Of a stretch of DNA of 64,000 nt, positions 1-17,469 are shown in pieces. Each line of letters opens with the position of its first letter. The stretch's first letter is position 1. The position numbers and the translations under genes were made by a program. Under the pieces are notes generated by a model. It ran no database searches, was not told the origin of the DNA, and saw nothing but the letters and a program-made list of their open reading frames with translations. The DNA comes from Bacteroidia bacterium (GTDB lineage Bacteria > Bacteroidota > Bacteroidia > AKYH767-A > 2013-40CM-41-45): NCBI GenBank assembly GCA_038206355.1, contig JBBRAY010000017.1:4364-68363 (forward strand), read 5' to 3'.

Positions 1-516
1 AACACGACAACCTGTGCTGTATCGACAGCATGGACGACATCAAGTTCAGTGGATCAGTTTTATACTGCCATGGATAGCGGAGCCACAATGGTCGCTTATT
101 ATGGTGGCTTCGGAATGCCAACTGTAGTTCTTGTGGGCGGACTTGATCACCGGACAATGTTTTCAACGTTGAGTTTCAGTACAAGTGATACCACCATTAT
201 GCGCGATTCTATAATGGCCCTGTATAGTCAGTTGAATGGTGTGAATCAAATCTCTTCCGTGGTTTCCCGGTTTGCGGTTTTTCCAAATCCGGCAACAGAC
301 ATGATAAATATCAATGTTGATCTGAATGAAACAACAGATCTGCTCATTGATATTGCTGATATTACAGGAAAACAAGTGGCACTTGTTATGGATGAAAAAA
401 GTAGCGGAATTGTATCTAAACAATTTGACACCAATTCTCTTGCGAATGGAAGTTACCTTGTACGATTAACTATAAATGGTAAAACCACAACAAGAAAATT
501 AACAGTCAACCATTGA
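1..516 (+). CDS. T9SS C-terminal-sorting-domain protein, 3' fragment (the reading frame is open to the window start, so the gene begins upstream)
   Basis: There is no stop between position 1 and the GTG at 49. The last ~90 aa (VFPNPATDMININVDL...GSYLVRLTINGKTTTRKLTVNH) have the FPNPA...beta-sandwich pattern of T9SS type-A sorting domains. Confidence 0.6.
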   Translation, partial: NTTTCAVSTAWTTSSSVDQFYTAMDSGATMVAYYGGFGMPTVVLVGGLDHRTMFSTLSFSTSDTTIMRDSIMALYSQLNGVNQISSVVSRFAVFPNPATDMININVDLNETTDLLIDIADITGKQVALVMDEKSSGIVSKQFDTNSLANGSYLVRLTINGKTTTRKLTVNH

Positions 517-1217
517 TTTTGAAAAAAATTCTCCAATACATACTATTATCGGTGGCCGGATTTTTTCCGGCTACCGGTAATTCTTTTGGCCAGAACTATT
601 CAATTTCTCCAAATGATTCAGTAGAAATTTCGGGAGTCTTTGAGGACCTGCAAACGCTTATCGTTAATCAAATAAATACGTCAAACGATACACTTCACTT
701 GCAGTGGGAAAAAATAGACGAAAACATTCCACTTCTCTGGGAGGCCTCTGTATGTGATAATTCATTCTGTTATTCTACGCTGGAAGAAAGCGGATACATG
801 GACCCTGTATTGCCGGGGGAGTATGGTTTTTTGCTTTTGCACATCACTCCTCATGTAAATTTCGGCACCTCAGTTATCCGTTATGCTGTATGGGATACCA
901 ATTTTCCATTGGTAAAAGACACACTCACCTATATTCTAAAGGTTGATTCAGCCAATGCAATCGGTGAAGCGGGAAAAGGGACAGGAGTGAAACTATATCC
1001 GAATCCGGCAACAAATTTTATTCACCTTACCGCCGATTGGGAATCCGGATTTTCTTATTCCATCTCTGATTTATCAGGCAAAGAAATCAATATAGGTATT
1101 GCATCCACCGGTTCCATTTCAATTCCTGCAATCAATTTTCAAAACGGAATTTACCAAATTGCAATAACCCGGAAATCAAAAACGACTACCGTTCTGAAAT
1201 TTATGATTCATCATTAA
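513..1217 (+). CDS. Secreted hypothetical protein with T9SS C-terminal sorting domain
   Basis: N-terminal hydrophobic signal-like segment. The C-terminus (KLYPNPATNFIHLTADW...GIYQIAITRKSKTTTVLKFMIHH) is T9SS sorting-domain-like. The start is uncertain (a TTG overlapping the previous stop). Confidence 0.5.
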   Translation: MILKKILQYILLSVAGFFPATGNSFGQNYSISPNDSVEISGVFEDLQTLIVNQINTSNDTLHLQWEKIDENIPLLWEASVCDNSFCYSTLEESGYMDPVLPGEYGFLLLHITPHVNFGTSVIRYAVWDTNFPLVKDTLTYILKVDSANAIGEAGKGTGVKLYPNPATNFIHLTADWESGFSYSISDLSGKEINIGIASTGSISIPAINFQNGIYQIAITRKSKTTTVLKFMIHH

Positions 1218-2948: not shown

Positions 2949-2950
2949 GA

Positions 2951-3361
2951 ATGTCACCTAAAAGCTTTTATGCTTCCGGAGTACTTCTCCTTTCAGTCCT
3001 CCTGTGTTCTTGTAAAAAAGAAGACAAATGCACCGGTGGCTCAGGTGGCAATCTCACATTGAAAATATCTCTCGTTCATCAAACTCATGCTATTATTAAT
3101 CTGAAAAACTTTCGGGATACCATTTATATTAAATACAATGCAAAAGAATTTCCCGGAACCGATCCCGCTCTTTATGATGCCGTCGTTATTGGTGACTGGC
3201 CTGCAGATGATGTTCTCATTCCCGGACTGCATTGCGGCGACTATTTTATTTATGGCGTCGGATATGAATCAGTACATGGGTATCGGGTGAGCGGAGGAAT
3301 TCCATTTAGTACCGATCAGAAAGAAGGAGAAAAGTCTTTAACGATACCTGTGTCAGAATAA
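2951..3361 (+). CDS. Hypothetical lipoprotein
   Basis: Lipobox-like LLCSCKK after a hydrophobic N-terminus. It starts 2 nt after the oxidase stop, so it is probably co-transcribed. No recognisable domain. Confidence 0.4.
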   Translation: MSPKSFYASGVLLLSVLLCSCKKEDKCTGGSGGNLTLKISLVHQTHAIINLKNFRDTIYIKYNAKEFPGTDPALYDAVVIGDWPADDVLIPGLHCGDYFIYGVGYESVHGYRVSGGIPFSTDQKEGEKSLTIPVSE

Positions 3362-3411
3362 TTTCTGACCTGATTACAGAATGAAAGAATAAATTTCTAA
3401 AATTAATTCCA

Positions 3412-3981
3412 ATGAAAAAGAAAATAATGTTTATCAGTCTTGCATTTTGTGCATCGACACTAATTTCATGTGCCCAGGCGAAACATGAACAAAAAAGTAA
3501 AGAATCAAAGACATCCGTTGTCTTATTTGAGAACACAAATGAGGAAGTAAAGACTCAAATCAATAATCTGCTTTCGGATTATATTAAACTAAAAGACGCC
3601 CTTGTAGCCGATGATGCAAAGATGACTGCCGTCAATACAAAAGCATTCCGAAAAACACTTGAGTTGATTGAAATGAATAAAATGACCGGCGCTGAGCATA
3701 CTTACTTTATGACGATGCAACCAAAACTTGATTATGATGCAGAACATATTCAAGGAGCACCGAATATAGATCACATGCGCGAACATTTTGCAACCCTATC
3801 CGACAATTTATTTTCTCTCGTGAAAGCATTTAAAGCAAACAATGGCACTGTTATTTATCTGGATCATTGTCCGATGTACGACAAAGGCGCAAACTGGATC
3901 AGCACTGAAGAGTCGATTAGAAATCCTTATTTCGGAAAACAAATGCCTACCTGTGGCAAGGTGACTGAAACACTGAATTAG
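3412..3981 (+). CDS. Periplasmic lipoprotein, DUF3347-like (a family that recurs in Bacteroidota metal-resistance loci)
   Basis: Lipobox LISCAQ. The body is helical, with a C-terminal HCPMY...MPTCGKV cysteine/His/Met segment. The family assignment is from memory of the DUF3347 architecture, not a search. Confidence 0.45.
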   Translation: MKKKIMFISLAFCASTLISCAQAKHEQKSKESKTSVVLFENTNEEVKTQINNLLSDYIKLKDALVADDAKMTAVNTKAFRKTLELIEMNKMTGAEHTYFMTMQPKLDYDAEHIQGAPNIDHMREHFATLSDNLFSLVKAFKANNGTVIYLDHCPMYDKGANWISTEESIRNPYFGKQMPTCGKVTETLN

Positions 3982-4081: not shown

Positions 4082-6424
4082 ATGGTTCGATCGAATAGAA
4101 TATCATTCCCACGGATTTCTAAATACGGGAAAAACTTTTTGCGGCTCGTAATCACATTACAGATTATTTCTTCATATGACTTATCGGCACAAAAGGTTGT
4201 GCGATACGACCTTTTGGTAAAAGACACCATTGTTAATTTTTCGGGAAAACAAAAACGTGCCATTGCAGTGAACGGACAAATCCCAATGCCGACGCTCACA
4301 TTTACAGAAGGAGATACGGCAGAAATATATGTGCACAATGAACTGAACGAAGAAACTTCTCTTCATTGGCATGGCTTGTTTTTGCCGAATCAATTTGACG
4401 GAGTACCAAATCTTACGCAGATGCCAATCAAGGCGCATCACACCCATTTATATAGATTCCCAATCATACAAAACGGTACGCACTGGTACCATAGTCATTC
4501 AGGATTGCAGGAACAGATAGGAATGTATGGATCAATGATCCTTAATAAAAAAGAATCTGATATAACCTATCGTAATGGAATAGATGATTTACCAACAGTT
4601 CCAATTATAATCAGTGAATGGACTGATATGAATCCGAGGCAGGTTCACCGGAGATTACACAATGCCTCCGACTGGTTTGCGATAAAGAAAGGAACCACAC
4701 AAAGTTATGGAGAAGCCATCGTGCAAGGGCATTTCAAAACGAAAGTGGCCAATGAATGGAAACGCATGAATGCAATGGATGTCAGTGATGTCTACTATGA
4801 CAAATTTTTGATCAATGGTCAAAATCATTTTGCACAATCTCAATTCAAGGCTGGAGATAAGGTCCGGTTAAGAATTTCCAATGGTGGTGCTTCAGATTAT
4901 TTCTGGCTTACCTATTCCGGCGGCAGGATTACCGTGGTAGCCACTGATGGTAGTGATGTTGAACCTGTTGAGGTTGACAGACTGATCATCGCCGTTTCAG
5001 AAACCTACGATGTGATTGTTACTGTTCCTGAAAATATGAGTTATGAATTTCTGGTAACGCCCGAAGATAGAACCAAGTCAGCATCTCTTTGGCTCGGATC
5101 AGGCATGAAGATGCCGGCCACACCCTTGCCGAAGTTAAAATATTTTGCCGGAATGAAAATGATGAACGGGATGATGAAGATGAATGGCGATCTTGATGAT
5201 ATGGGAATGAAGATGAGTCTGAATCAGATGGACATGAATAATGTGATGTATCCGGAAATTACAGGAGACGGGAAAAAGAAATCTAAAACGAAATCCGAAG
5301 GTCATGACATGCACAACATGCAAATGGGTGAAGATTCAAATTCCCCGGATGCAATGAAGGATATAGTTACACTGAATTATGCAATGCTGAAATCTCCGGT
5401 TGCCACAACACTTCCATCAGATGCACCGGTGAAGGAATTATTTTTTGAACTTACCGGTAATATGAACCGCTATGTATGGAGTATAAATAATAAAGTAATT
5501 TCCGAGAAAGAAAAAATTCTGATCAGGAAAGGAGAGAATGTACGCATCATATTATACAACAACTCAATGATGCGCCATCCTATGCATTTGCATGGACATG
5601 ACTTCCGCATATTGAATGGACAAGGCGCACATGCACCGTTAAAAAATGTGTTGGACATCATGCCGATGGAAACCGATACGATTGAATTTAACGCCAATGT
5701 TTATGGCGACTGGTTTTTTCATTGCCATATCCTTTATCATATGATGAGCGGTATGGGCAGGATATTCAGTTATGAAAATCAGCCGGCTAATCCTGAAATT
5801 ACAAATCCCGGACTGGCAAAACGGAAATTTATTTCCGAAGACAGGAAATTTCATTTTATGCTGAGTGCAGGAATTGAAACAAACGGCTCCGACGGAGAGG
5901 CAATGTTTGCTAATACCAGATGGAATGCAAAAACCATGTGGCATTTGGGATTTCATTCAGGTCATGGTTATGAAAGTGAAACGATGTTTGGAAGATATTT
6001 TGGAAAAATGCAGTGGCTGTATGCATACACAGGCTTTGATTATCATTACAAGACTGATGGTCCGACGCAGAAAAATTTTGTTGATATGGAGGGAAGCCCG
6101 AAAAATATTTTCGGGAGTGAGGAAATGAACTGGTTTGGGCAACGCAGTGATAAAAATAACAGGCAGACTGCAGTTTTAGGGATTGCTTATACCCTTCCCA
6201 TGTTACTCGTTGCTGACATCAGGGTTGACCTCAATTCCAAACTTCGTTTTCAACTAGCGAGAGAAGATATACCTTTAACCAAAAGATTTCGCGGAAGCAT
6301 CATGTTGAATACGGACAAGGAATACATGATAGGCCTCCACTATATTGCAATGAAACTTATTTCACTTTCAACGCACTATGACAGCGACATGGGTTGGGGT
6401 GCGGGCTTGATGTTTACTTACTGA
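4082..6424 (+). CDS. CopA/CueO-like multicopper oxidase with a methionine-rich segment and a ~230-aa C-terminal extension resembling an outer-membrane CopB-like beta-barrel
   Basis: MCO motifs HWHGL, HWYHSH, HPMHLHGHDF and HCHILYHMMSGM are present. The Met-rich tract (GMKMPATP...GMKMMNGMMKMNGDLDDMGMKMSLNQMDMNN) is typical of periplasmic Cu-resistance CopA. The C-terminal tail has alternating hydrophobic residues and ends in an aromatic residue (..AGLMFTY). Confidence 0.75.
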   Translation: MVRSNRISFPRISKYGKNFLRLVITLQIISSYDLSAQKVVRYDLLVKDTIVNFSGKQKRAIAVNGQIPMPTLTFTEGDTAEIYVHNELNEETSLHWHGLFLPNQFDGVPNLTQMPIKAHHTHLYRFPIIQNGTHWYHSHSGLQEQIGMYGSMILNKKESDITYRNGIDDLPTVPIIISEWTDMNPRQVHRRLHNASDWFAIKKGTTQSYGEAIVQGHFKTKVANEWKRMNAMDVSDVYYDKFLINGQNHFAQSQFKAGDKVRLRISNGGASDYFWLTYSGGRITVVATDGSDVEPVEVDRLIIAVSETYDVIVTVPENMSYEFLVTPEDRTKSASLWLGSGMKMPATPLPKLKYFAGMKMMNGMMKMNGDLDDMGMKMSLNQMDMNNVMYPEITGDGKKKSKTKSEGHDMHNMQMGEDSNSPDAMKDIVTLNYAMLKSPVATTLPSDAPVKELFFELTGNMNRYVWSINNKVISEKEKILIRKGENVRIILYNNSMMRHPMHLHGHDFRILNGQGAHAPLKNVLDIMPMETDTIEFNANVYGDWFFHCHILYHMMSGMGRIFSYENQPANPEITNPGLAKRKFISEDRKFHFMLSAGIETNGSDGEAMFANTRWNAKTMWHLGFHSGHGYESETMFGRYFGKMQWLYAYTGFDYHYKTDGPTQKNFVDMEGSPKNIFGSEEMNWFGQRSDKNNRQTAVLGIAYTLPMLLVADIRVDLNSKLRFQLAREDIPLTKRFRGSIMLNTDKEYMIGLHYIAMKLISLSTHYDSDMGWGAGLMFTY

Positions 6425-6571
6425 ATTCATTTTATAATTTGGCGGTGTGTAAAGCAGCCAGATGATTGAATGAAAACAAATCACTTATGGCTAGAATATT
6501 TTCAAAACGTTTTATTTCCTCTGATTTTTTTTCAGTACGACATAATTTGAAATGGATAAAACTTTTCAAAT

Positions 6572-7852
6572 ATGATTGAAAAAATAATCAGCTGGAGTAT
6601 CAGGCACCGGTACGAGGTGGTTTTGTTCACCTTGTTAACCATTGGGTTTGGCTGGTTTGCCCTAAAAAATACGCCTATTGATGCCATTCCCGATTTATCA
6701 GAAAACCAGGTAATTGTTTTTACGGAATGGATGGGACGCAGTCCGCAATTAATAGAAGACCAGGTTACCTATCCGCTTGTTTCAAATTTGCAAGGCATAC
6801 CGAAAGTAAAAAACATACGCGGCACTTCGATGTTCGGAATGAGTTTCGTTTATCTTATTTTTGAAGATGATGTGGATTTATACTGGGCACGGTCACGTGT
6901 ACTGGAGCGTTTAAATTATGCGCAGCGTTTATTGCCCGAAGGCGTAACCGCCAATCTTGGACCTGACGGCACAGGCGTTGGACATGTTTTCTGGTACACC
7001 ATAAAAGCGCCCGGTCTGGATTTAGGCGAGCAGCGTGCATTACAGGATTGGTACGTTAAGTTTGCTTTACAAACAGTTCCCGGTGTAAGTGAAGTCGCAT
7101 CATTTGGCGGATTTGAAAAACAATTTCAGATCACACTTGATCCTCACAAATTAAATTACTACAACATCCCTATGATGGATGTATTGCGCGCAGCCAAGAG
7201 TAATAACAATGATGTGGGAGGCCGTAAATTTGAAATGAGCAGCATGGCTTATATTATTCGCGGCTTAGGTTACATAAAAAATCTGGAGGATGTAGAAAAC
7301 ATTCCTGTGGGCGTTTATAATTCCGTTCCAGTAAGGATGAAAGATTTGGGAAGCGTACAGATGGGAGGCGCTTTGCGACTCGGCATATTTGATAACAACG
7401 GACAAGGCGAAGCAGTAGGAGGAATTGTGGTGATGCGTTATGGCGAAAACGCTGATAAAGTGATTAATGATGTAAAAGCAAAAATGAAAGATGTTGGCAA
7501 AGGGTTACCCGATGGTGTAACCTTTAATATTGCTTATGACAGAAGCGTGCTGATTGAAAGTGCAATGGAAACATTGAAACGAATTCTAACCGAAGAGATG
7601 ATTATCGTTTCCATTGTAATTATGATTTTTCTTTTTCACCTGCGGAGTTCCCTCATTGTAATTATCACACTACCGATTGCAATTCTCATCAGTTTTATAT
7701 TAATGTATTGGTTTAAGATTTCTTCCAACATCATGTCGCTCTCCGGAATTGCAATTGCAATAGGAGTAATTGTTGATGCCGCCATTGTGATGATTGAAAA
7801 TACACATCGTCATTTATCAGATGCACAAATAAAAAAGGAGGCTGAATTATGA
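6572..7852 (+). CDS. CusA/CzcA-family heavy-metal efflux RND permease, N-terminal 426 aa (the gene is split here by a -1 frameshift)
   Basis: The N-terminus (MIEKIISWSIRHRYEVVLFTLL...IPDLSENQVIVFTEWMGRSPQLIEDQVTYPL) is the canonical CusA start. The ORF ends in an ATGA overlap with the next ORF, which continues the same protein. Confidence 0.85.
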   Translation: MIEKIISWSIRHRYEVVLFTLLTIGFGWFALKNTPIDAIPDLSENQVIVFTEWMGRSPQLIEDQVTYPLVSNLQGIPKVKNIRGTSMFGMSFVYLIFEDDVDLYWARSRVLERLNYAQRLLPEGVTANLGPDGTGVGHVFWYTIKAPGLDLGEQRALQDWYVKFALQTVPGVSEVASFGGFEKQFQITLDPHKLNYYNIPMMDVLRAAKSNNNDVGGRKFEMSSMAYIIRGLGYIKNLEDVENIPVGVYNSVPVRMKDLGSVQMGGALRLGIFDNNGQGEAVGGIVVMRYGENADKVINDVKAKMKDVGKGLPDGVTFNIAYDRSVLIESAMETLKRILTEEMIIVSIVIMIFLFHLRSSLIVIITLPIAILISFILMYWFKISSNIMSLSGIAIAIGVIVDAAIVMIENTHRHLSDAQIKKEAEL

Positions 7853-9780
7853 ATTTGAAATTCTGGAAAAAGCAGCCCAATGATTTACTCTCTAAAGAAG
7901 AACGGAAAGCTATAATTGAAAAATCTTCTCACCAGGTTGGTCGTCCAATATTTTTCTCGACCATCATAATTGTCGTTTCTTTTTTGCCTGTATTTATGCT
8001 TACAGGAATGGAAGGGAAATTATTTCATCCGCTTGCTTATACAAAAACATTTGTATTGCTTGGCTCTGCATTGCTTGCCATCACTATCGTTCCGGTGCTG
8101 ATGATTTTATTTATGAAAGGAAAAGTAAAACCCGAAGGTAGTAATCCGGTTTCGCGTTTTTTTGAAAAATTATACGCTCCAGTTTTGCATTTATGTCTGG
8201 AATGGAAAAAAACAACACTTGCAATTAATGTTGTGGCATTAATCATCGGAATTTTTCTTACCTTGAATTTGGGTTCAGAATTTATGCCCCCGTTGGATGA
8301 AGGCTCTATTTTGCTGATGCCTGTTACCATGCCCGATGTAAGTAACTCCGAAGCAAAGCGCATCATTCAGTTGCAGGACAAAATAATCATGACCGTTCCT
8401 GAAGTGCATCATGTACTTGGTAAAGCAGGTCGTGCAAATACAGCAACCGACAATTCCCCTATCAGCATGATTGAAACAATTATTTTGCTGAAACCAAAAA
8501 CGGAATGGAGAAAAGGAATTTCGAAAGAGGATATTGTGAATGAACTGAATTCGAAATTGCAAATTCCGGGAGTAGTTAACGGCTGGACACAACCTATCAT
8601 CAACCGCATCAATATGCTTTCAACAGGAATCAGAACGGATGTGGGTTTGAAAGTATATGGTCAGAGTTTGGATACGATTTACAAACTTTCGGTGATGATG
8701 AAAAAGGAATTGGAAGATATCCGTGGCGTTAAAGATTTATATGTGGAGCCAATTACCGGAGGAAAATATCTCGACATCAAAATTAAAAAAACGGAAATAG
8801 GAAGATATGGTTTGAGTGAGAACGATGTAAACATGCTGGTGGAATCAGCATTGGGCGGAATGAACCTGACCTCTGTAATTGACGGAAGGCAACGCTTTAG
8901 TGTGAATGCACGGTTTGCACAAAACTTCCGAAACAGCATTGAAGACATCAAACGATTACTCGTCCAGACGCCTTCATATGGTCCGGTGCCCTTGAGTGCA
9001 GTAGCAGACGTTTACATTAGTGAAGGACCACCAATGATAAATTCAGAAAATGCAATGCTCCGCGGAACCGTGTTGTTCAATGTGCGCGACCGCGACCTTG
9101 GCGGCACTGTGAATGAAGCCATGAAAAAATTAAATGACATGGTGCAAAAACTTCCCAAAGGATATTACATCGAATGGAGCGGACAATGGGAAAATCAGGT
9201 GCGTGCAAACAAGCGATTGTCCATCATCATTCCACTTGCGTTGTTATCCATTTTCATACTTTTATTTTACACCTACAGATCGCTGAAAGAAGCCATTATC
9301 ACTTCCATCAGTGTTCCGTTTGCATTGATTGGCGGAGTTTATATTATTTATTTCTACGGAATTAATTTATCCGTTGCTGTTGCAGTGGGATTTATTGCAT
9401 TGCTCGGTGTTGCTGTTGAAACGGGTGTGCTCATGGTAATTTATCTGGATGAAGCAATGATAAAACTCACGGAGGAAAAAGGAAATAACCGTGAGAGTAT
9501 TACCCCGTTGGATATTCGCAAAGCCGTAGTGGCAGGCTCAGTAAAAAGATTGCGACCGAAACTAATGACGGTGGCTGCTGCAATCATGGGATTGATTCCG
9601 ATTTTATTATCGGATGCAACAGGCAGTGATGTAATGCGACCCATAGCACTGCCGATGATAGGCGGAATGGTCACTTCAGCAATACATGTACTGTTAGTTA
9701 CGCCAATTATTTTTTTACTGACAAAGGAATATGAATTTAAGAAACATGGGAAAATTGATGTGCTCAATGCCAAGCATTAA
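7849..9780 (+). CDS. CusA/CzcA-family RND permease, C-terminal 643 aa (continuation after the frameshift)
   Basis: The sequence continues colinearly with CusA (…GRPIFFSTIIIVVSFLPVF…, C-terminal TM bundle, IGGMVTSAIHVLLVTPIIF). The combined 426+643 aa is about the CusA length. Confidence 0.85.
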   Translation: MNLKFWKKQPNDLLSKEERKAIIEKSSHQVGRPIFFSTIIIVVSFLPVFMLTGMEGKLFHPLAYTKTFVLLGSALLAITIVPVLMILFMKGKVKPEGSNPVSRFFEKLYAPVLHLCLEWKKTTLAINVVALIIGIFLTLNLGSEFMPPLDEGSILLMPVTMPDVSNSEAKRIIQLQDKIIMTVPEVHHVLGKAGRANTATDNSPISMIETIILLKPKTEWRKGISKEDIVNELNSKLQIPGVVNGWTQPIINRINMLSTGIRTDVGLKVYGQSLDTIYKLSVMMKKELEDIRGVKDLYVEPITGGKYLDIKIKKTEIGRYGLSENDVNMLVESALGGMNLTSVIDGRQRFSVNARFAQNFRNSIEDIKRLLVQTPSYGPVPLSAVADVYISEGPPMINSENAMLRGTVLFNVRDRDLGGTVNEAMKKLNDMVQKLPKGYYIEWSGQWENQVRANKRLSIIIPLALLSIFILLFYTYRSLKEAIITSISVPFALIGGVYIIYFYGINLSVAVAVGFIALLGVAVETGVLMVIYLDEAMIKLTEEKGNNRESITPLDIRKAVVAGSVKRLRPKLMTVAAAIMGLIPILLSDATGSDVMRPIALPMIGGMVTSAIHVLLVTPIIFLLTKEYEFKKHGKIDVLNAKH

Positions 9781-9788
9781 TTAATAAA

Positions 9789-11024
9789 ATGAAAAAGAAT
9801 TGTGTCATCTGTATTTTGATTTTGTTTTTGGGCAGTAGTTGTCTTAAAATAAATGCACAGGTAATTTCTCTCGATTCCATTCTAACGGCTGTGGAGACAA
9901 ATTACCCGATGCTTAAAATGTATGATGAAAAAATAAAAGCACTAAACGCAAATGCCGAAGGGGCGAAGTCATGGATGCCACCGCAATTCGGGGTTGGTTT
10001 GTTTATGACACCTTACAATTTTCAAAAGGATATGGGGGCTGTTATGCTTAGCGGCGAACAAATGATTCCAAATCCGGTGAAACTATCAGCAAATAAAAAA
10101 TACATGCAAAGTATGTCGGCCGTAGAATCAGATAGTAAATCCTATTCAAAGAACCAGATGTTCGGAATGGCAAAAATGATTTACTACGATTGGGTGGTGA
10201 TGAAGATGAAAAAACTCGTGCTTACCCGGAATGAAGAACTTTTGAATTTTACCATTGCCAGTGCAGAAAACAGGTACCCCTATGGTAAAGAAAAATTAAA
10301 TAATATTTATAAAGCCAAAGCCCAATTGTATGAAGTTTATAATATGCAGTTAATGCTTGACAAAGACATTTCTCAGATGAGGATTGCACTGAACACGTTG
10401 TTGAACGTTGATAAAAATACAACGTTTGATGTAGACACCAACTTTATAATCCAAAATTATGATGTCAGCTTGGTGGATATTTCATCGTTTAAATCTTTTC
10501 GCAGTGACATCAAACTGGCAGAGTCACAAATCAGCATGATGCAATACAAACAGCAGCTTGAAAAGAATGCCCGACTTCCTGATTTTGGTATCAGGTACGA
10601 TCATATGAATACCCTGGGTAAGTCTTCTAATCTCTTTTCAATTATGGGAATGATTACCATCCCAATTGCTCCATGGTCTTCAGGTATGTACAAGGCAAAT
10701 GTGAAAGGCCTCGGATTTGAAATTCAATCCAAGCAGTTTCTAAAAGTGGACATCGTAAATGAAGCAGCCGGTAAACTGGAAGATTTGCGAATACAAATTA
10801 AATTCAAAAAACAGCAATTGATTCTTTACAGTGATAGCATATTGCCGGCTCTTAAAAACAACTATCAGATTACAATAATAGCATATGATCAAAATACCGA
10901 TGATTTATTCATGGTTCTTGACGCATGGCAAATGCTCAACATGAAAGAATTGGAATATTACGACCGTGTGGGTGAACTTTTGCAGTTGCAAGTCGGCTAT
11001 GAAAAAGAAATTGAAAAGCGATAA
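9789..11024 (+). CDS. TolC-like outer-membrane efflux channel (CusC/CzcC-type OMF)
   Basis: Signal peptide, then the typical OMF N-terminal helix (LDSILTAVETNYPMLKMYDEKIKALNANAEGAKS). About 410 aa with coiled-coil repeats. It lies between the RND permease and the adaptor genes. Confidence 0.75.
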   Translation: MKKNCVICILILFLGSSCLKINAQVISLDSILTAVETNYPMLKMYDEKIKALNANAEGAKSWMPPQFGVGLFMTPYNFQKDMGAVMLSGEQMIPNPVKLSANKKYMQSMSAVESDSKSYSKNQMFGMAKMIYYDWVVMKMKKLVLTRNEELLNFTIASAENRYPYGKEKLNNIYKAKAQLYEVYNMQLMLDKDISQMRIALNTLLNVDKNTTFDVDTNFIIQNYDVSLVDISSFKSFRSDIKLAESQISMMQYKQQLEKNARLPDFGIRYDHMNTLGKSSNLFSIMGMITIPIAPWSSGMYKANVKGLGFEIQSKQFLKVDIVNEAAGKLEDLRIQIKFKKQQLILYSDSILPALKNNYQITIIAYDQNTDDLFMVLDAWQMLNMKELEYYDRVGELLQLQVGYEKEIEKR

Positions 11025-11027
11025 AGG

Positions 11028-12320
11028 ATGATTAACAGAAAAAATAAATTAAATAAAATATTCTTCATCGTAACGATTTCAATTTCGGCGGCCTTTCTAT
11101 TTGGCTGTAATGAAAATAATTCATCACATGATGATCACAATCATTTGACTGAAAATAAAATATATACCTGCTCCATGCATCCGCAGATCATTCGAAATGC
11201 CCCAGGGAACTGCCCAATTTGCGGAATGAAGCTGATTGAAAAAACACAAGGCGTATCACTTGATGGAAACATCAACATCACTGATGTGGTAAAACCAACA
11301 GATGAATCTGTAATTTCAAATGTAAAAACTTTCACGGTAAAAGAATTGATTTTTCGACCTAAAATTACAAGTATTGGAAGTATTGAATATGACACCAGAA
11401 GATTTACAAACATTGCATCAACAATTGACGGGCGTATAGAGCATCTGTATGTTAAGTACCAATATCAGGTGATTCATAAAGGAGAAAAACTATACGATAT
11501 TTATAGTCCGGCTTTACAGACTGAAGTACAGAACTTAATTTATCTTTTAAATCATGAATCGGATAATTCCAATTTAGTTATTGCTTCAAAACTGAAATTG
11601 AAATTACTTGGTTTGTCGCATATGCAGCTTGATGAAATATCAACAAACAAACAAGCAACTGCTACCCTCAGCATTTACAGCCCGGCCGACGGATACGTTA
11701 TAGACAATTCAATGAATGTCGTTTCTTCAAATCAGTCCATGCCAATGGCTACCTTATCACAAAATAAATCTGCATCTACTAATTCTTTTTCAATGAAAGA
11801 AGGGCAGTATGTTAAACAAGGGGAAACCGTTTTTAAAGTCATCAACACACAGAAGGTTTGGGCAGTGATGAATATATATGCCGATGAAATTAATCACATT
11901 TCGAAAGGACAATCAGTAAAACTGATAATGGATAATATGCGGGATGACACGTTGATCACAAAAATTGATTTTGTGGAACCCGTGTTTGATTCCGGCAACA
12001 AATTTTTAAAGCTCCGCGCCTATCTCGATAATCCTACGGGCATGTTGATTCGCGGCAATTTATTTCACTCATATATTCAAACAGAACTCACATCAGGATT
12101 TTGGATCCCGAAATCTGCAGTGCTTGATTTAGGCAAAGAAAAAGTAGTGTATGTTCAAAATGAAAATATGTTTTATGCCCGCTTGATAACCACCGGCGCC
12201 GCCGTAAATCAGCATGTGCGTATTACTGCCGGATTACATTCAGGAGAAACAATTGCATCAAACGCACAGTATCTAATGGATAGTGAAAGTTTTATAAAAA
12301 TTAAAACACATGAAAATTAA
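11028..12320 (+). CDS. RND periplasmic adaptor (CusB-like membrane fusion protein) with an N-terminal CxxC heavy-metal-binding domain
   Basis: Lipobox FLFGCNEN. The motif YTCSMHPQIIRNAPGNCPICGMKL matches the YxCPMHP...CPxCGM metal-binding domain found at CusB N-termini. The rest is a membrane-fusion-protein beta-barrel/lipoyl-like body. Confidence 0.8.
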   Translation: MINRKNKLNKIFFIVTISISAAFLFGCNENNSSHDDHNHLTENKIYTCSMHPQIIRNAPGNCPICGMKLIEKTQGVSLDGNINITDVVKPTDESVISNVKTFTVKELIFRPKITSIGSIEYDTRRFTNIASTIDGRIEHLYVKYQYQVIHKGEKLYDIYSPALQTEVQNLIYLLNHESDNSNLVIASKLKLKLLGLSHMQLDEISTNKQATATLSIYSPADGYVIDNSMNVVSSNQSMPMATLSQNKSASTNSFSMKEGQYVKQGETVFKVINTQKVWAVMNIYADEINHISKGQSVKLIMDNMRDDTLITKIDFVEPVFDSGNKFLKLRAYLDNPTGMLIRGNLFHSYIQTELTSGFWIPKSAVLDLGKEKVVYVQNENMFYARLITTGAAVNQHVRITAGLHSGETIASNAQYLMDSESFIKIKTHEN

Positions 12321-13413
12321 TATACTGCCACTTTTTTTTCTTCTAATATTATTTTCCTGTAATAAAAACAAGGAAAAGCAAATGAATATGACGGAAGAAG
12401 AACACAGCTCAATGAACAAATTTATATTCAGTGAAGCACAACTGAAACTCGCCAACATTAAGGTGGAATCAATTGAAATGAAAAACATTTCGGAAGAAAT
12501 ACTATTAACCGGAAAGATCGTACCTGATGAAAATAATGCCACTCAAATCAATTCCCGAATCATGGGGCGAATTGATAAGTTGTATTTCAAATACGCAGGA
12601 GAAAGTATCCATAAAGGAAATTTACTATTTGAAATTTATAGTGAAGATTTAATGGTCGCTCAGCGAGATTATTTGCTTGCCCTGCAGCAAACAGAAAACA
12701 AATCTTATAACCACGAATACCTGAAACAGCTAAAAACATCTTCAAAAAACAAGTTAATTCTTTGGGGCTTGACTGAATTGCAGCTTGCTGAACTGGAAAA
12801 AACCAAAAAAATAAATTCAACTACAAATATTTACAGTGATGTCAGCGGCATCATAACCGATGTAACGGTACGCGAAGGAGATTATGTAATGGAGGGCACC
12901 CCTGTATATAAACTAAATGATCTGTCATCGCTTTGGGTGGAAGCTCAATTGTATTCCAATGAACTGCAATCGGTAAAAAAAAATACAGAAGCAGAAATAA
13001 TAGTTGATGGTTTCACCAATCAAAGTCTAAAGACGAAAATTTCATTTATCAATCCCGAACTGAACAACAACAGTATTGTAAATATCGTCCGTGCAGGAAT
13101 TCCAAATGCTGATTATAAATTAAAACCCGGCATGATGGCAACTATCCGAATAAAAACAAAATCAAAAAATGCTTTGGTGCTCCCGGTAGATGCAGTACTT
13201 CAGGAACCGGATGGTAGTTCGGTATGGGTACAAAATAGCGATGGATCATTTAAGAATAAAATGGTAATGACAGGCATCAGAAATAAAAACGAACTGGAAA
13301 TAACGATGGGATTGAATGCCGGTGAGAAAGTTGTGGTAAGCGGGGCCTATCTCATCAACAGCGAATTCAGACTCAAGCAAGATTCAGATCCAATGGCAGG
13401 AATGAAAATGTAA
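12310..13413 (+). CDS. Second RND periplasmic adaptor (membrane fusion protein paralog) lacking the metal-binding module
   Basis: Lipobox LFSCNKN. It has the hairpin/lipoyl/beta-barrel organisation of a membrane fusion protein and a Met-rich C-terminus (DPMAGMKM). It overlaps the upstream adaptor gene by 11 nt. Confidence 0.7.
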   Translation: MKINILPLFFLLILFSCNKNKEKQMNMTEEEHSSMNKFIFSEAQLKLANIKVESIEMKNISEEILLTGKIVPDENNATQINSRIMGRIDKLYFKYAGESIHKGNLLFEIYSEDLMVAQRDYLLALQQTENKSYNHEYLKQLKTSSKNKLILWGLTELQLAELEKTKKINSTTNIYSDVSGIITDVTVREGDYVMEGTPVYKLNDLSSLWVEAQLYSNELQSVKKNTEAEIIVDGFTNQSLKTKISFINPELNNNSIVNIVRAGIPNADYKLKPGMMATIRIKTKSKNALVLPVDAVLQEPDGSSVWVQNSDGSFKNKMVMTGIRNKNELEITMGLNAGEKVVVSGAYLINSEFRLKQDSDPMAGMKM

Positions 13414-13510
13414 ATTGAAAAAACAATAATATTTCCTCAAGAAAATATTAATTTGTCAAATAGAATGATTAAAATAACCTATTTTCATTAATTCAAAACT
13501 CAAAATAACC

Positions 13511-13780
13511 ATGAGAAAATCAAACATCATTTTAACGGCAGCATTTGCTTTAATGCTTTGCGCCTGCAGTACTTCATCCAACAAGAATGAACAATCAAAT
13601 GCTACTGATAGCGCTGGAGTTCAAAGTACGGCCATGGAACAAATTTTTAATCTGGATACCACAATCCTGGCAAGTGGAGCAACATTTTATCAGTGTGAAA
13701 TGGATCCCGAAGTTCTTTCAGACAATCCCGGTAGTTGTCCTAAATGCGGAATGTATCTATCGGCGCGTAAGAAAAATTAA
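13511..13780 (+). CDS. Small lipoprotein carrying a variant CxxC heavy-metal-binding domain
   Basis: Lipobox LMLCACS. The C-terminus (FYQCEMDPEVLSDNPGSCPKCGMYL) is a variant of the YxCPMHPE..CPxCGM module. Confidence 0.6.
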   Translation: MRKSNIILTAAFALMLCACSTSSNKNEQSNATDSAGVQSTAMEQIFNLDTTILASGATFYQCEMDPEVLSDNPGSCPKCGMYLSARKKN

Positions 13781-13886: not shown

Positions 13887-14099
13887 GTGGAAAGTAACCT
13901 TATTCTGAATGCTGTAATTAAATGTCCGGTTTGTGGTTTCAGCAAAATAGAAATAATGCCGGTTGATGCCTGTCAGTACTTTTATGAATGTGAAAATTGC
14001 AAAACCATCCTCAAACCTAAGCCCCGTGATTGCTGCGTTTATTGCAGTTATGGATCAGTAAAATGTCCTTCAAAACAGGAAGGAAAAAGTTGTTGCTAA
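13887..14099 (+). CDS. GDCCVxC-family small cysteine-rich metal-binding protein
   Basis: 70 aa with CPVCGF, CENCK, PRDCCVYC and a C-terminal KSCC. The RDCCVYC core matches the GDCCVxC domain signature seen in heavy-metal loci. Confidence 0.55.
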   Translation: MESNLILNAVIKCPVCGFSKIEIMPVDACQYFYECENCKTILKPKPRDCCVYCSYGSVKCPSKQEGKSCC

Positions 14100-14721
14100 A
14101 CTAATCAGTTTAAACTTGAAATAGCATAGAATAAAAACCACCGGAATACATCGGGAAAACATTTTGGAAACGAAAGCTGAAAATGAAGTAAGTTGACTTT
14201 AAACTTACATCAAAATTTCAATATACTTTTAAGAACTATTTTACTTACGAATTTACATAAGTGTTATTGATGTCTTTATATTCTGAACGAGTCAACCTTT
14301 AATATGAGAAAGATCATCTCAATGAATGACAAAAGTCAGATAAATAAGATTCCGCTATTTCCATATTTACTACACAAAAGATGTACAAATCCCTGAATAG
14401 AAATTGATGTCTGGATGCCGATCAATGGAAGGAATATTTTACTTCATAATATGTGCATTATAACCAACTGAAAATGTCGGCGCATTACATCAGGAGCAAA
14501 TTTTGCCCCATGCAAGTGAATGCGTTTACACCTTCTGCATTGAATGGAAATATTCAGATCGACAACGTTTTAATGCGAAAGTCATTTATAGAAACTTTCT
14601 CCGGCTTACAGTCCTGACATATGAATTATGTAACTATTTCCAATAATTATATAATGCCCTTCATTAAAAAAAAAGGATCTTTGATGAAAGTAAAATCATT
14701 TAAATATTAAACACAAATAAA

Positions 14722-14835
14722 ATGATGAACGAACATTCATGGGGTTGGGGAATGGGTTATGGTATGTGGATCATTCCAATTATACTTCTCATTATTGTTG
14801 TCTTTACTTTAAGAAACAGACGGAGAAAAAAATAA
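14722..14835 (+). CDS. Possible 37-aa single-pass membrane mini-protein (MMNEHSWGWGMGYGMWIIPIILLIIVVFTLRNRRRKK)
   Basis: It is the only coding-like ORF in an 840-bp gap. It has a strongly hydrophobic core followed by a basic tail. It lies just upstream of the Met-rich chaperone gene and is below the ORF-track length cutoff. Confidence 0.25.
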   Translation: MMNEHSWGWGMGYGMWIIPIILLIIVVFTLRNRRRKK

Positions 14836-14937
14836 TAAGACTGTATTAATTTTTAATGACGCAATATACATCCGGGCGACAGCGATACTGAAGAGCGGGT
14901 AACAGCGCCTCTGAAATATATTTAAACTAAATTTAAA

Positions 14938-15399
14938 ATGAAAAACAAAAAAATGATTGCCGCCATGTTTGCTTCAATGCTCATGCTGGTTGTATGCATT
15001 ACTTCAGGTAATTCTTTTGCACAAACCAAGACCGATTCTACAATGATGAAAGATTGCTGTTTGATGAAGGATGGTAAAATGATGCAAATGATGGACGGCA
15101 AAATGATGCCAATGGAAAAAGACATGACCATGAAAAATGGAACCATGTGTATGACCAATGGCGAATGTGTGATGAAAGATGGAACAAAGATGATGATGAA
15201 AGATGGAGATTGTATGGACATGAGTGGCAAGATGGATAATTGCGCCATGATGATGAAAGGTTCAAAAAGTGGAACCAAAATGGAAAGTGATAAAAAGGAT
15301 GTGGCTATGACTTACACTTGCCCAATGCATCCCGAAGTTACAAGTGACAAAGCAGGGAAATGCCCGAAATGCGGAATGGATCTGATGGAGAAGAAGTAA
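14938..15399 (+). CDS. Secreted Met/Cys-rich copper-binding protein with degenerate MKDG(K)MM repeats and a C-terminal CxxC metal-binding domain
   Basis: Signal peptide. About 75 aa contain >25 Met plus Cys pairs (MMKDCCLMKDGKMMQMMDGKMMPMEKDMTMKNGTMCMTNGECVMKDGTKMMMKDGDCMDMSGKMDNCAMMMKG). The C-terminus (YTCPMHPEVTSDKAGKCPKCGMDL) is the canonical metal-binding motif. Confidence 0.7.
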   Translation: MKNKKMIAAMFASMLMLVVCITSGNSFAQTKTDSTMMKDCCLMKDGKMMQMMDGKMMPMEKDMTMKNGTMCMTNGECVMKDGTKMMMKDGDCMDMSGKMDNCAMMMKGSKSGTKMESDKKDVAMTYTCPMHPEVTSDKAGKCPKCGMDLMEKK

Positions 15400-15420
15400 C
15401 AAAAAAACTGACTTCTAAAT

Positions 15421-17469
15421 ATGAATATGACGCATACGGATCACTCAAAGATGAATCATTCGGAACACGGGAATGTTCCAATGGGAATGGCAGGTCATAA
15501 TCATCACAAAATGATGATTGATGATTTCAAGCGACGATTTTATGTGACGCTTGTCATTACCCTTCCTGTCATGCTGCTTTCGCCAATGATTCAGCATTGG
15601 TTCCATTTCACCATTGCGTTTCCCGGGTCAACTTATTTACTATTCGGCCTCTCAACTGTTGTCTTTTTTTATGGCGGGCTGCCTTTCCTGAAAGGAATCG
15701 TTGATGAACTAAAACAGAAAACGCCCGGCATGATGACATTGATCGCAGTGGCTATTACTACTGCCTATGCCTACAGCGTTGCTACCGTTTTTGGCTTACA
15801 TGGGATGGATTTTTTCTGGGAACTCTGTACCTTGATCTTAATCATGTTACTTGGGCACTGGATTGAAATGAAATCCGTAGCAGGAGCTTCGAAAGAACTG
15901 GAACTCCTCGTGCAACTTATGCCTTCTGATGCACATATGATTATGCCGGCCCACAAAGGTTCAGGCGCCGGTGAAATGATACATGAAGTAAAAACAGATT
16001 CACTGAAAGAAGGTGACCTGATTTTAATTAAGCCCGGAGAAAAAGTTGCTGCAGATGGAATCATTTCCCACGGAGAAAGCTACCTGAATGAATCCATGCT
16101 CACCGGAGAATCTGTCCCCGTAAAAAAGAACAAGGGAGAAAAAGTTATTGCAGGATCTATCAATGGCAATGGCTCATTAAAAGTTACGGTGAGTCATTCA
16201 TCAAAAGACTCCTATCTTTCACGCGTAATCAAACTGGTGAATGACGCACAAAAAGCAAAATCAAAAACCCAGCTACTCGTTGATAAGGCAGCACAGATAC
16301 TTACCATCGTTGCACTCGCATCAGGTTTTGCTACATTTTTTTTCTGGTGGTTAATTGCTAAGGAAACACCTGTATTTGCCATTGAGAGAATGGTAACTGT
16401 GATCGTAATCTGCTGCCCGCATGCACTTGGGCTTGCAGTACCATTGGTGGTTGCAATCTCAACATCACTATCTGCTAAAAACGGCCTGCTTATAAAAAAC
16501 AGAACGTCTTTTGAGAATGCAAGGAAAATTACCACCGTCATATTTGACAAAACAGGAACACTCACTTATGGAAAGTTTGAAGTGGCAAGAATAAAAATCT
16601 TAAAACCGGGGCTGGATGAAAAAGAAATCATCCGCATTTCAGCAGCACTCGAACAAAACTCTGAACATCCGATCGCAACAGGAATCATTGCAAAAGCTAA
16701 AGAATTTTCACTTAACATTCCCACGGTAAATAATTTCAGGGCCATCACAGGAAAAGGAATAGAAGCTGAGTTGGAAGGGAAGAATGTCAAAGTTGTAAGT
16801 CCGGGTTATTTACGTGAGAAAAACATTCATTTACCTGACAATGATTCCGGGACCGCTGCCGAAACCATTGTATTTGTTATTGTCAATGATGAGTTGACCG
16901 GATACATTTCACTGGCAGATAAAATCAGACCTGAATCAGCAGAAGCAATTAAAATACTCCATGAAAACAATATCAAATCCATTTTACTCACCGGTGACAA
17001 TGCAAAAGTTGCAAAGAGTGTAAGTGATGAATTAAAAATGGATGGCTTCTTTGCTGAAGTATTACCACATCAAAAACTTGAAAAAATAAAAGAGTTGCAA
17101 AGCAAAGGTGAGTTCATTGCTATGACAGGCGACGGAGTAAACGATGCGCCTGCACTGGCTCAGGCAGATATCGGAATTGCAGTTGGCAGTGGCAGCGACA
17201 TTGCAGCAGAAACCGCGGGAATCGTTCTTGTCAACAGCAATCCAAAAGACATTTCAAGTCTGATCCTTTTTGGAAAAGCTACCTACAGAAAAATGATTCA
17301 GAATTTAATCTGGGCGACAGGATACAATGTCATCGCACTTCCTTTGGCTGCAGGCGTGCTTTACAAATGGGGAATAATGCTGAGTCCGGCGGCAGGAGCA
17401 GTACTGATGAGCGTTAGTACAATCGTTGTTGCCATTAATGCAAAAATGCTTCGGGTTACAAATAAATGA
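15421..17469 (+). CDS. Heavy-metal-translocating P1B-type ATPase, CPH-type (P1B-3/CopB-like) with a His-rich N-terminus
   Basis: His-rich MNMTHTDHSKMNHSEHGNVPMGMAGHNHHKMM N-terminus. TM6 carries CPH (VICCPHALGLAVP) rather than CPC. DKTGTLT, TGDN and GDGVNDAPAL motifs are present. No ferredoxin-like GMxCxxC N-terminal domain. Confidence 0.9.
   Translation: MNMTHTDHSKMNHSEHGNVPMGMAGHNHHKMMIDDFKRRFYVTLVITLPVMLLSPMIQHWFHFTIAFPGSTYLLFGLSTVVFFYGGLPFLKGIVDELKQKTPGMMTLIAVAITTAYAYSVATVFGLHGMDFFWELCTLILIMLLGHWIEMKSVAGASKELELLVQLMPSDAHMIMPAHKGSGAGEMIHEVKTDSLKEGDLILIKPGEKVAADGIISHGESYLNESMLTGESVPVKKNKGEKVIAGSINGNGSLKVTVSHSSKDSYLSRVIKLVNDAQKAKSKTQLLVDKAAQILTIVALASGFATFFFWWLIAKETPVFAIERMVTVIVICCPHALGLAVPLVVAISTSLSAKNGLLIKNRTSFENARKITTVIFDKTGTLTYGKFEVARIKILKPGLDEKEIIRISAALEQNSEHPIATGIIAKAKEFSLNIPTVNNFRAITGKGIEAELEGKNVKVVSPGYLREKNIHLPDNDSGTAAETIVFVIVNDELTGYISLADKIRPESAEAIKILHENNIKSILLTGDNAKVAKSVSDELKMDGFFAEVLPHQKLEKIKELQSKGEFIAMTGDGVNDAPALAQADIGIAVGSGSDIAAETAGIVLVNSNPKDISSLILFGKATYRKMIQNLIWATGYNVIALPLAAGVLYKWGIMLSPAAGAVLMSVSTIVVAINAKMLRVTNK

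Follow-up and report, generated by a model that had tools for sequence, protein, structure and literature searches.

The first 17 kb of a 64,000-nucleotide stretch of Bacteroidota DNA (contig JBBRAY010000017.1 of assembly GCA_038206355.1; this whole stretch is referred to below as the window) hold a series of genes for metal-handling proteins, and the analysis presented here makes it likely that they constitute a resident, chromosomal and modular copper homeostasis cluster of an uncultured member of this phylum, probably serving silver as well, and not a recently acquired island. The cluster is an ordinary copper-detoxification cluster of the Bacteroidota with one unusual feature, namely that its CusA pump is encoded by two genes.

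Fifteen open reading frames (ORFs), all on the + strand, occupy positions 1–17469, and the ORFs called on the opposite strand within the cluster do not exceed 118 aa and all lie antisense inside well-supported genes. Families were assigned by Pfam and NCBIfam profile scans and motifs were taken from the translations. From left to right, the ORFs encode two proteins with the C-terminal sorting domain of the type IX secretion system (T9SS), T9a (1–516) and T9b (513–1217), the multicopper oxidase MCO1 (1218–2948), the lipoprotein lipo136 (2951–3361), a DUF3347 lipoprotein (3412–3981), a second multicopper oxidase, MCO2B (4082–6424), the two parts of the pump, CusA_N (6572–7852) and CusA_C (7849–9780), an outer-membrane factor (9789–11024), two periplasmic adaptors, MFP1 (11028–12320) and MFP2 (12310–13413), the small lipoprotein HMBD89 (13511–13780), a GDCCVxC mini-protein (13887–14099), a DUF6799 protein (14938–15399) and a P-type ATPase (15421–17469). 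In a preliminary description of the same DNA this unidirectional array had been recognized, and the families it assigned agree with the profile scans for all items named, including the three proteins with a PF19335 HMBD, namely MFP1, the 89-aa lipoprotein and the DUF6799 protein. The total of fifteen genes given there is reached only by counting CusA as two ORFs, and its three CxxC proteins and two adaptors, both correct as counts, share MFP1. Furthermore, the metal-related families are real but do not extend to all fifteen genes, T9a, T9b and lipo136 having no demonstrated link to metals. The designation “copper/heavy-metal” likewise holds for its first part but not for heavy metals in general; a specificity for copper and silver is indicated because the Met triad of CusA (M573/M623/M672) is conserved, the ATPase carries the CPH motif and both oxidases are of the multicopper type.

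The window (~40% GC) is Bacteroidota chromosomal DNA with many T9SS-sorted proteins (at least 13 ORFs with the sorting domain in 1–64000) and, to the right of the cluster, housekeeping genes encoding folC, GTP cyclohydrolase I, PTPS, FabD, FabG, IspG and a lipid A acyltransferase. The preliminary description had called the cluster an island, i.e., a compositionally foreign and recently acquired element, and had proposed a comparison of GC and tetranucleotides with the rest of the window. This comparison, for which the rest of the 64-kb window was the sole reference, yields a GC content at third codon positions (GC3) of 0.371 ± 0.045 in the cluster and of 0.389 ± 0.057 elsewhere, the two values being indistinguishable (Mann–Whitney p = 0.33). 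The tetranucleotide distance between cluster and rest is 0.0157, just above the range of equal-sized control chunks (0.008–0.015), and no part of the cluster is as deviant as two 5-kb stretches that lie outside it in the window. As to signs of mobility, the window contains no tRNA gene, none of its scanned ORFs has an integrase or transposase domain, and no flanking repeats were found within the window, the left border of the cluster lying outside it.

Conserved gene order in relatives is found at both ends. On the right, folC (17533–18843, − strand; Mur_ligase_M, Mur_ligase_C) converges on the ATPase gene and marks the boundary of the cluster; the block folC-T9c-epimerase-VitK2-PNP-PTPS-GCH1-Bax1-FabD is conserved in the loci L087, L088 and L091, the best FolC relatives outside the organism of the window having at most 73% identity, so that the comparison holds no closer relative. 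In L087 and L088 (FolC 73%) a P-type ATPase gene likewise converges on folC, and its product is 89% identical to that of the window over the last 64 residues, where both contigs end. On the left, L092 presents T9a (72%), T9b (62%), MCO1 (78%), a T9c-like gene, an HMBD protein, lipo136 (66%), a T9SS protein and MCO2B (82%), an order that equals that of the window with small indels, the identities being at the level of housekeeping-like divergence.

A number of observations must be set against long residence. The mean gene GC of the cluster is 1.6 points lower than that of the rest of the window (0.392 vs. 0.408, p = 0.007); L091 (FolC 69%) keeps the core block up to folC and then has YceI and other, unrelated genes in place of the copper genes; homologous clusters are found, beside a transposase, on mobilizable plasmids of Pontibacter, Hymenobacter, Flavobacterium and other Bacteroidota; and the cus cassette (five genes, 6567–13414) recurs in L081 in a different context, where a GH94 glucan synthase gene precedes it and no other copper genes are nearby, with protein identities (96% and 94% for the CusA halves, 81% for the outer-membrane factor, 68% and 72% for the adaptors) to be compared with 73% for the best FolC. 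These data, and the fact that the modules are shuffled among 80 genomes, in which gene-order maps reveal many different arrangements, lend some support to the hypothesis that the cluster is a horizontally acquired island, or a stack of cassettes, that arrived without a regulator and owes its expression to foreign or read-through promoters. On the other hand, the DNA identity of the cassette shared with L081 is 81%, with mostly synonymous differences, so that a recent transfer is unlikely. Because composition matches and synteny is conserved, the very outcomes that the preliminary description had named as speaking against its proposal, the island idea largely fails, and we consider horizontal acquisition of the whole an unlikely origin, an older exchange of individual cassettes being possible. 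In our reading, the gene orders would be best accounted for by a long-resident, modular, rearrangement-prone cluster at a variable locus beside folC. As to the limits of the shared segment, in the region 1282–16840 of L081 the start of the cassette overlaps by 8 nt the 3′ end of a gene whose product is a GH94/glycoamylase (cyclic glucan synthase-like) protein of 2908 aa; homology starts 5 nt before the start of CusA_N and stops 1 nt past the stop of MFP2.

The conserved two-gene CusA is the feature of the cluster that most deserves to be followed up. CusA_N comprises transmembrane helix (TM) 1, the first periplasmic loop, TM2–TM4 and, within VIVDAAIVMIEN, the equivalent of D405 of the Escherichia coli protein; it covers positions 1–420 of the 1021 of ACR_tran and 1–431 of TIGR00914 (467 bits). 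CusA_C comprises TM5–TM12, the second periplasmic loop, the Met triad and the equivalents of E939 and K984, and covers ACR_tran 417–1020 and TIGR00914 421–1039 (623 bits). Taken alone, each half scores below the full-length cutoff of TIGR00914 (701), and jointly the halves span the whole model. The protein thus belongs to the CusA family (TIGR00914/PF00873), its best match in the PDB being E. coli CusA (E = 7e-163), with two ORFs in the place of the single ~1050-aa chain of 12 TMs. In the alignment of CusA_C with residues 418–1037 of E. coli CusA (PDB 3ne5_A; residue numbers are the chain index minus 7) M573, M623, M672, E567, D617, E625, R669, E939 and K984 are retained without exception, and R stands in the place of K678. 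The two ORFs lie in different frames, the start of CusA_C overlapping the stop of CusA_N as ATGA. The break falls in the cytoplasmic TM4–TM5 loop, near residue 418 of E. coli CusA, and not at the TM6/TM7 pseudo-symmetry boundary, so that the D405 equivalent resides on one chain and E939/K984 together with the Cu(I)-binding Met triad on the other. The split pump is an architectural variant that would function like CusA.

The split is not peculiar to the window. The best 120 database homologues of CusA_N are 401–534 aa long, and 116 of these 120 measure 418–456 aa; RefSeq proteins of Hymenobacter, Runella and Hydrotalea are among them. Clustering at 50% identity yields a single 427-aa representative for the CusA_N family, the next relatives being of full length. 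Among the homologues of the split CusA four junction architectures were found, among them the ATGA overlap of the window, which recurs in Flavobacterium rhamnosiphilum; in Emticicia the genes overlap by 14 nt in the +1 frame, and those on the Pontibacter actiniarum plasmid are set apart by a spacer of 21 nt. An unsplit CusA orthologue of 1051 aa (~70% identity) occurs in a metagenome-assembled genome (MAG) of the Saprospiraceae (L009). An assembly error, a frameshift artefact or a pseudogene can be rejected as explanations, because half-length homologues dominate and the split recurs across lineages with junctions that vary from one to the next. It is therefore probable, in our judgement, that in a subfamily of the Bacteroidota which includes Hymenobacter, Runella, Hydrotalea, Flavobacterium, Emticicia, Pontibacter and many MAGs the CusA protomer consists of two chains made from two translationally coupled genes. 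No description of a split CusA/CzcA was found in the literature searched.

A dnaX-like heptamer, A_AAA_AAG (7831–7837), is present in frame and is followed by AAGGAGG, the whole (7831–7841) lying 8–18 nt ahead of the stop of CusA_N and the start of CusA_C. A programmed frameshift at this site was considered and rejected: a −1 slip meets a TGA at 7843–7845 and stops at once, so no fusion product can arise by that route. The Shine–Dalgarno-like run ahead of CusA_C is unusual for Bacteroidota. In the databases, RefSeq labels the CusA_N of Hymenobacter, Runella and Hydrotalea as an ordinary permease subunit, and the split CusA of the Pontibacter actiniarum plasmid NZ_CP021236 (153030–156236; L095, 4031–7237) has no coding sequence with a protein accession in the gene table of PLSDB, a table that is incomplete and leaves out pseudogenes; this plasmid-borne copy may have been annotated as a pseudogene, in which case annotation pipelines would be treating split CusA inconsistently. 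A second class of CusA-like proteins, ~1375–1460 aa long, i.e., ~400 aa longer than, and ~35% identical to, the CusA of the window, occurs in L002, L018 (12881–17146), L025, L034, L036, L037, L045, L058, L074, L078 and L079; these are presumably fusions with another pump component.

The pump is followed by its partners. The TolC/CusC-like outer-membrane factor (OEP, E = 6.8e-18) comes after CusA in all related cassettes. MFP1 and MFP2 are CusB-type adaptor lipoproteins (HlyD_D23, E = 4.7e-44 and 3.2e-59, respectively), overlap by 11 nt, and are paralogues with 25–30% identity; the pair is conserved in related loci, and only MFP1 has an N-terminal HMBD with its CxxC (E = 4.1e-14, residues 46–72).

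Upstream of the pump lie the two oxidases and their associated genes. T9a, whose frame is open from the first base and is cut by the start of the window, is represented by its 3′ part (Por_Secre_tail, E = 8.8e-16); in L092 and L093 its orthologues (72% and 56% identity, respectively) immediately precede that of MCO1. T9b, a 234-aa protein, overlaps T9a by 4 nt and abuts MCO1; the Pfam scan assigned to it no family besides Por_Secre_tail (E = 3.2e-9), and its orthologue in L092 occupies the same position. MCO1 is a three-domain oxidase of the CotA/bilirubin-oxidase-like type (Cu-oxidase_3, Cu-oxidase_2, Por_Secre_tail) with the copper motifs HWHG, HPHG, HPFHMH and HCHLLHH, and has homologues with 65–78% identity that are widespread among Bacteroidota MAGs; since it carries a T9SS sorting domain, it is predicted to be secreted or attached to the surface. 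The T9SS-oxidase trio can be regarded as a separate module, because L093 has, of this whole set, only the T9a-like, MCO1 and T9c-like genes, in an unrelated context. T9c itself, a T9SS protein beside folC (18870–20312, − strand), is 55% and 49% identical to products of L092 (11743–13203) and L093 (11716–13155), respectively, which directly follow the MCO1 orthologue, a likeness that hints at an ancestral T9a-MCO1-T9c unit now separated or rearranged by copper genes. lipo136, a predicted lipoprotein of 136 aa with an LLCSC lipobox and without a Pfam or NCBIfam match, has its L092 orthologue between MCO1 and MCO2B.

The DUF3347 lipoprotein (PF11827, E = 2.6e-23) is the usual upstream partner of oxidases of the MCO2B type, its gene occurring in 58 of 81 sources, namely the window and the 80 related loci with which the cluster was compared. 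These loci were taken from GTDB genomes at ±10 kb around MCO2B homologues and their ORFs were clustered; 52 of the 80 are full-length. The homologues around which they were chosen are the best 80 (66–76% identity) of 593 MCO2B relatives, and full-length homologues are encoded by 21 Bacteroidota plasmids as well. MCO2B, a CopA/PcoA-like oxidase of 780 aa with a Met/His-rich insert, possesses all three Cu-oxidase (cupredoxin) domains and the four His-rich copper motifs, and aligns over residues 36–560 with TIGR01480, at 377.4 bits below the cutoff of 478.95; judging from its sequence, it is a multicopper oxidase with CopA-like features and not a certified equivalog of that family. Its C-terminal ~210 aa (5792–6424, residues ~570–780) have no Pfam match at E ≤ 1, no meaningful PDB match and no detectable sequence similarity to CopB/PcoB, and in a tblastn search of 72,556 plasmids they were found only fused to Bacteroidota multicopper oxidases. 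An outer-membrane barrel is suspected because the domain ends in an aromatic residue, so that it may act as an outer-membrane anchor; a single-sequence AlphaFold (AF2) model of the domain was unusable (pLDDT 34). Elsewhere in the window, 23 kb from the cluster, a gene for a cupredoxin of the plastocyanin/azurin family (40812–41354, − strand) is found beside those for an O-methyltransferase and an aromatic amino-acid lyase.

Downstream of the adaptors, HMBD89 combines a visible signal peptide and lipobox with a C-terminal HMBD CxxC (PF19335, E = 1.6e-8) and is probably a periplasmic copper-binding protein. The GDCCVxC mini-protein (70 aa, NF041374, 96 bits vs. a cutoff of 40) is rich in Cys, has no signal peptide and is likely a cytoplasmic metal-binding protein. 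In four relatives (L034, 16939–17541; L058, 7136–7750; L065, 4248–4856; L080, 9393–10001) the GDCCVxC domain forms the cytoplasmic C-terminus of a ~200-aa protein whose hydrophobic N-terminal part has an SPCCFP motif and, as read from the sequence, may be MerC-like. The possibility that the mini-protein is a hidden regulator was rejected, the domain being joined in these relatives to a putatively MerC-like membrane protein and not to a DNA-binding domain. The DUF6799 protein is Met-rich (153 aa), is predicted to be secreted and has MKDG repeats and a C-terminal HMBD CxxC (PF20606, E = 1.9e-23; PF19335, E = 7.5e-16); its stop lies 21 nt upstream of the ATPase gene, and the same pair occurs in L005, L027, L032 and L060. 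The ATPase, with homologues of 71–84% identity in ~20 related loci, is matched by TIGR01511 (583.7 bits vs. 397), TIGR01525 (580 vs. 346), E1-E2_ATPase and Hydrolase, and the CPH motif (VICCPHALG), the His-rich N-terminus (MNMTHTDHSKMNHSEHG...GHNHHK) and the P-type core (FDKTGTLT and, with GDGVNDAP, MTGDGVNDAPAL) place it among the copper exporters of the CopB-type, P1B-3-like group.

How the cluster relates to known copper systems can be seen module by module. With E. coli CusCFBA it shares a resistance-nodulation-division (RND) pump of the heavy-metal efflux (HME) type in which the Met triad and the proton-relay residues are kept, as well as an outer-membrane factor and an adaptor of the CusB type; it differs in that CusA is split, the adaptors are two paralogues, one of them with an HMBD, CusRS is lacking, no protein of the window was assigned to the CusF family, and the order is A-C-B-B and not C-F-B-A. 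The Met-rich periplasmic oxidase core of CopA/PcoA type and an envelope-located partner function recall Pseudomonas syringae copABCD and E. coli pcoABCDRSE, but the oxidase of the window, scoring below the family cutoff (377 vs. 479), is fused to a ~210-aa domain unlike CopB/PcoB, CopRS/PcoRS are missing and no protein of the window was assigned to the CopC or CopD family. In ATPases of the CopB type a His-rich N-terminal extension replaces the CxxC HMA domains and CPH lies at the transmembrane metal site; the enzyme of the window resembles the P1B-3 ATPases CopB of Enterococcus hirae and of Archaeoglobus fulgidus in its CPH, His-rich N-terminus, DKTGT and GDGVNDAP, unlike which its gene is preceded by, and probably co-transcribed with, that of a secreted DUF6799-HMBD protein and has no partner of the CopY/CopZ type. 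For the two adjacent paralogous adaptors serving one RND pump and one outer-membrane factor, an analogy might be drawn with TriABC-OpmH of Pseudomonas aeruginosa, a triclosan pump of the hydrophobe/amphiphile efflux 1 (HAE1) class that needs two different adaptors; the pump of the window, in contrast, is of the HME Cu/Ag type and itself split, and its adaptor pair, of which both members may be required, is conserved across related loci.

The closest parallels are Bacteroidota clusters headed by an AraC-family protein with an HMA domain (AraC-HMA), such as those of the Pontibacter actiniarum plasmid NZ_CP021236, of L009 (Saprospiraceae), L060 and L027, which use the same building blocks as the window: DUF3347, DUF6799 and HMBD proteins, ATPases of the CopB type, an oxidase whose C-terminal domain is that of MCO2B, and a CusA pump accompanied by TolC and two adaptors. 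The Pontibacter plasmid shares the split of CusA with the window, and L009 has DUF3347, oxidase, CusA, outer-membrane factor and the two adaptors in the order of the window. Compared with these clusters, the window lacks the AraC(HTH_18)+HMA protein, HMA-MauE, Haem_bd and DUF305 proteins, and has in addition the T9SS-exported MCO1 module.

Regulatory genes are indeed absent. Pfam detected no DNA-binding, receiver, kinase or sigma domain in the 15 ORFs of the cluster and no transcription-factor family in the other 37 ORFs of ≥100 aa of the window, and tblastn with the regulator clusters of related loci found no match in the whole window. Profile HMMs of AraC_HMA, HMA-MauE, Crp and ECF, run with --max against the six frames of the window, returned only noise (E > 0.8), so that not even a pseudogene remnant of these regulators is present. 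The earlier statement that the cluster has no ORF of the CueR/MerR, CopY, CusRS or AraC type is thus confirmed and extended to all 64 kb and to decayed copies, but the weight laid on this absence is not, in view of what is found in relatives. There, the AraC-HMA regulator (187 aa; HTH_18, E = 5e-15, and an N-terminal HMA-like domain by Pfam) occurs in 22 of the 80 loci (17 of the 52 full-length ones), typically heading a same-strand operon of the order AraC-HMA, HMA-MauE, DUF3347, (ATPase), oxidase; it is annotated in the cluster of the Pontibacter actiniarum plasmid too. A Crp-like protein is present in 9 and a Cys-rich ECF sigma factor in 7 of the 80 loci, and at least one of the three is encoded in 25 of the 52 full-length loci, the scan of related loci being confined to these three types. 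Furthermore, a published analysis of the genome of the flavobacterium Bizionia argentinensis detected neither a regulator beside the copper ATPase genes nor a canonical CueR or CopY that has the residues for copper binding (PMC11213822), and CsoR has been described as noticeably absent from Bacteroidales (PMC4938975). The missing regulator is therefore real but unsurprising for the phylum, given that about half of the comparable clusters do without the three types and that a flavobacterium is reported to lack a neighboring regulator. Since the window encodes no transcription factor, expression of the cluster would be either constitutive or controlled in trans from elsewhere in the genome, and the most likely trans regulator belongs to the AraC family and has an N-terminal HMA domain, a type of protein found at the head of the equivalent operons in about one-third of the related clusters. 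On AraC-HMA copper regulators of Bacteroidetes nothing specific was found in the literature searched.

A dedicated regulator might also lie just upstream of position 1 and head the array as in the AraC-HMA operons. Such an arrangement is suggested by the 22 related loci in which AraC-HMA opens a same-strand copper operon, by the partial nature of the first ORF of the window, which implies that the array continues upstream, and by the length of the source contig (68,499 bp), which exceeds that of the window by 4.5 kb. The fact that up to 4.5 kb lie beyond the window, with room for a regulator, counts against control from a distant site. However, some or all of this sequence may flank the opposite end of the window, and in L092, where MCO1 is 78% identical, the 10 kb upstream encode four further T9SS-tail proteins, a TPR protein, TauE and small ORFs without any match to a transcription factor; in L093 the upstream genes are those of TonB-dependent receptors and ParAB. 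Moreover, a regulator so placed would be separated from the ATPase gene by 14 kb and several likely promoters. An upstream regulator is an improbable solution, and we favor constitutive expression or control from elsewhere in the genome.

Gene spacing suggests ~5–7 transcription units. Within T9a-T9b-MCO1-lipo136 and within CusA_N-CusA_C-outer-membrane factor-MFP1-MFP2 the genes overlap or are separated by no more than 8 nt; between DUF6799 and ATPase there are 21 nt, and the other junctions measure 50–147 nt, save for the 838 bp ahead of DUF6799. Both these units and control in trans are deduced indirectly because no promoter or operator could be identified, a circumstance that must be reckoned among the weaknesses of the interpretation given here: none of the intergenic regions of the cluster has an exact match to the Bacteroidetes −7 motif TAnnTTTG, and a scan of the cluster for sigma-70-type promoters was at chance level. 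The same was true of a scan of the cluster for terminators, and no conserved repeat or palindrome was found in it. Candidate operators were also sought as k-mer motifs upstream of orthologous genes. Neither the GACAGCC-type motif, which precedes DUF3347 in several Flavobacteriia/Flavobacterium-type loci, nor AAGATTGC is present in the intergenic regions of the window, and the latter motif is not an operator but the coding sequence of a mini-ORF. This mini-ORF of ~22–25 codons, ending ...IFKAIFIRKKDCCK*, stands directly upstream of the ATPase or oxidase gene in at least 16 Chitinophagaceae-type loci (L004, L007, L016, L024, L027 at 6630–6710, L028, L032, L034, L035, L036, L040, L042, L053, L055, L062 and L074) and is not present in the window; its product could be a small copper-binding or leader peptide.

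The stretch 14100–14937 (838 bp), to which no gene could be assigned (no ORF longer than 54 aa), is the sole long non-coding stretch of the cluster and presumably holds the promoter of the DUF6799-ATPase pair. That neither a gene nor an RNA accounts for it is a further weakness of the same interpretation. The idea of a decayed regulator gene was rejected within the sensitivity of a blastx search at E ≤ 10 and of profile HMMs run with --max, both of which were empty, and a riboswitch or other known RNA is unsupported, with no Rfam match at E ≤ 1 and unconvincing fold z-scores. The stretch could conceivably exert a non-canonical control in cis on the DUF6799-ATPase pair, through an unrecognized RNA or through a 37-aa ORF at 14722–14835 (MMNEHSWGWGMGYGMW...RNRRRKK) acting as leader peptide or sensor. 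This ORF encodes a plausible single TM helix with a basic tail; the stretch occupies the place where L060 has AraC-HMA and HMA-MauE upstream of DUF6799-ATPase; and the mini-ORF (...KKDCCK) of related loci provides a precedent for small peptides directly upstream of an ATPase or oxidase gene. However, the 37-aa ORF has no family match, none of the 80 related loci yielded a homologue of it under the coverage filter applied, and the fold z-score of −1.96 for 14100–14721, derived from only 20 shuffles, is offset by that of the immediate 5′ region (+0.72), which folds no better than shuffled sequences. In the light of these data, to which the lack of an Rfam match and of conserved repeats or palindromes is to be added, cis control of this kind is very improbable, more so than either of the alternatives discussed above, and a resident cluster that is expressed constitutively or controlled in trans remains our preferred interpretation.

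Within this resident cluster, five modules that recur in shuffled order across the Bacteroidota may cooperate as follows. MCO1, exported by the T9SS together with its two T9SS partners, would oxidize Cu(I) at the cell surface, and MCO2B, presumably anchored in the outer membrane and acting with DUF3347, would do so in the envelope. The split CusA, with its chains of TM1–4 and TM5–12, would use protons to drive Cu(I)/Ag(I) out across the outer membrane with the help of the outer-membrane factor and the two adaptors. The DUF6799-HMBD protein, the HMBD lipoprotein and the HMBD of MFP1 would bind Cu(I) in the periplasm, and the CopB-type ATPase would deliver cytoplasmic copper to this compartment. 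Of these parts, the small CxxC and Cys-rich metal-binding proteins make up the fourth module, and the DUF6799-HMBD protein forms the fifth together with the ATPase.

What is the significance of these findings for the Bacteroidota? As a copper cluster, the one described here adds little, being built from the standard envelope copper-detoxification toolkit of the phylum, in which a local regulator is often missing. The absence of a regulator underlines how limited the grasp of copper sensing in Bacteroidota is: the canonical CueR, CopY and CsoR are missing, about half of the related clusters, that of the window included, encode none of the three regulator types considered, and the best candidate for a sensor is AraC-HMA. 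A by-product of greater use is the split CusA with its four gene junctions, which bears on RND assembly, proton coupling and genome annotation. The conserved split is evidence that the RND protomer tolerates, and that a clade maintains, a break between TM4 and TM5, and split CusA genes run the risk of being called frameshifted pseudogenes. If its two-chain nature is true, this pump would offer a natural system for the study of RND assembly and energy coupling.

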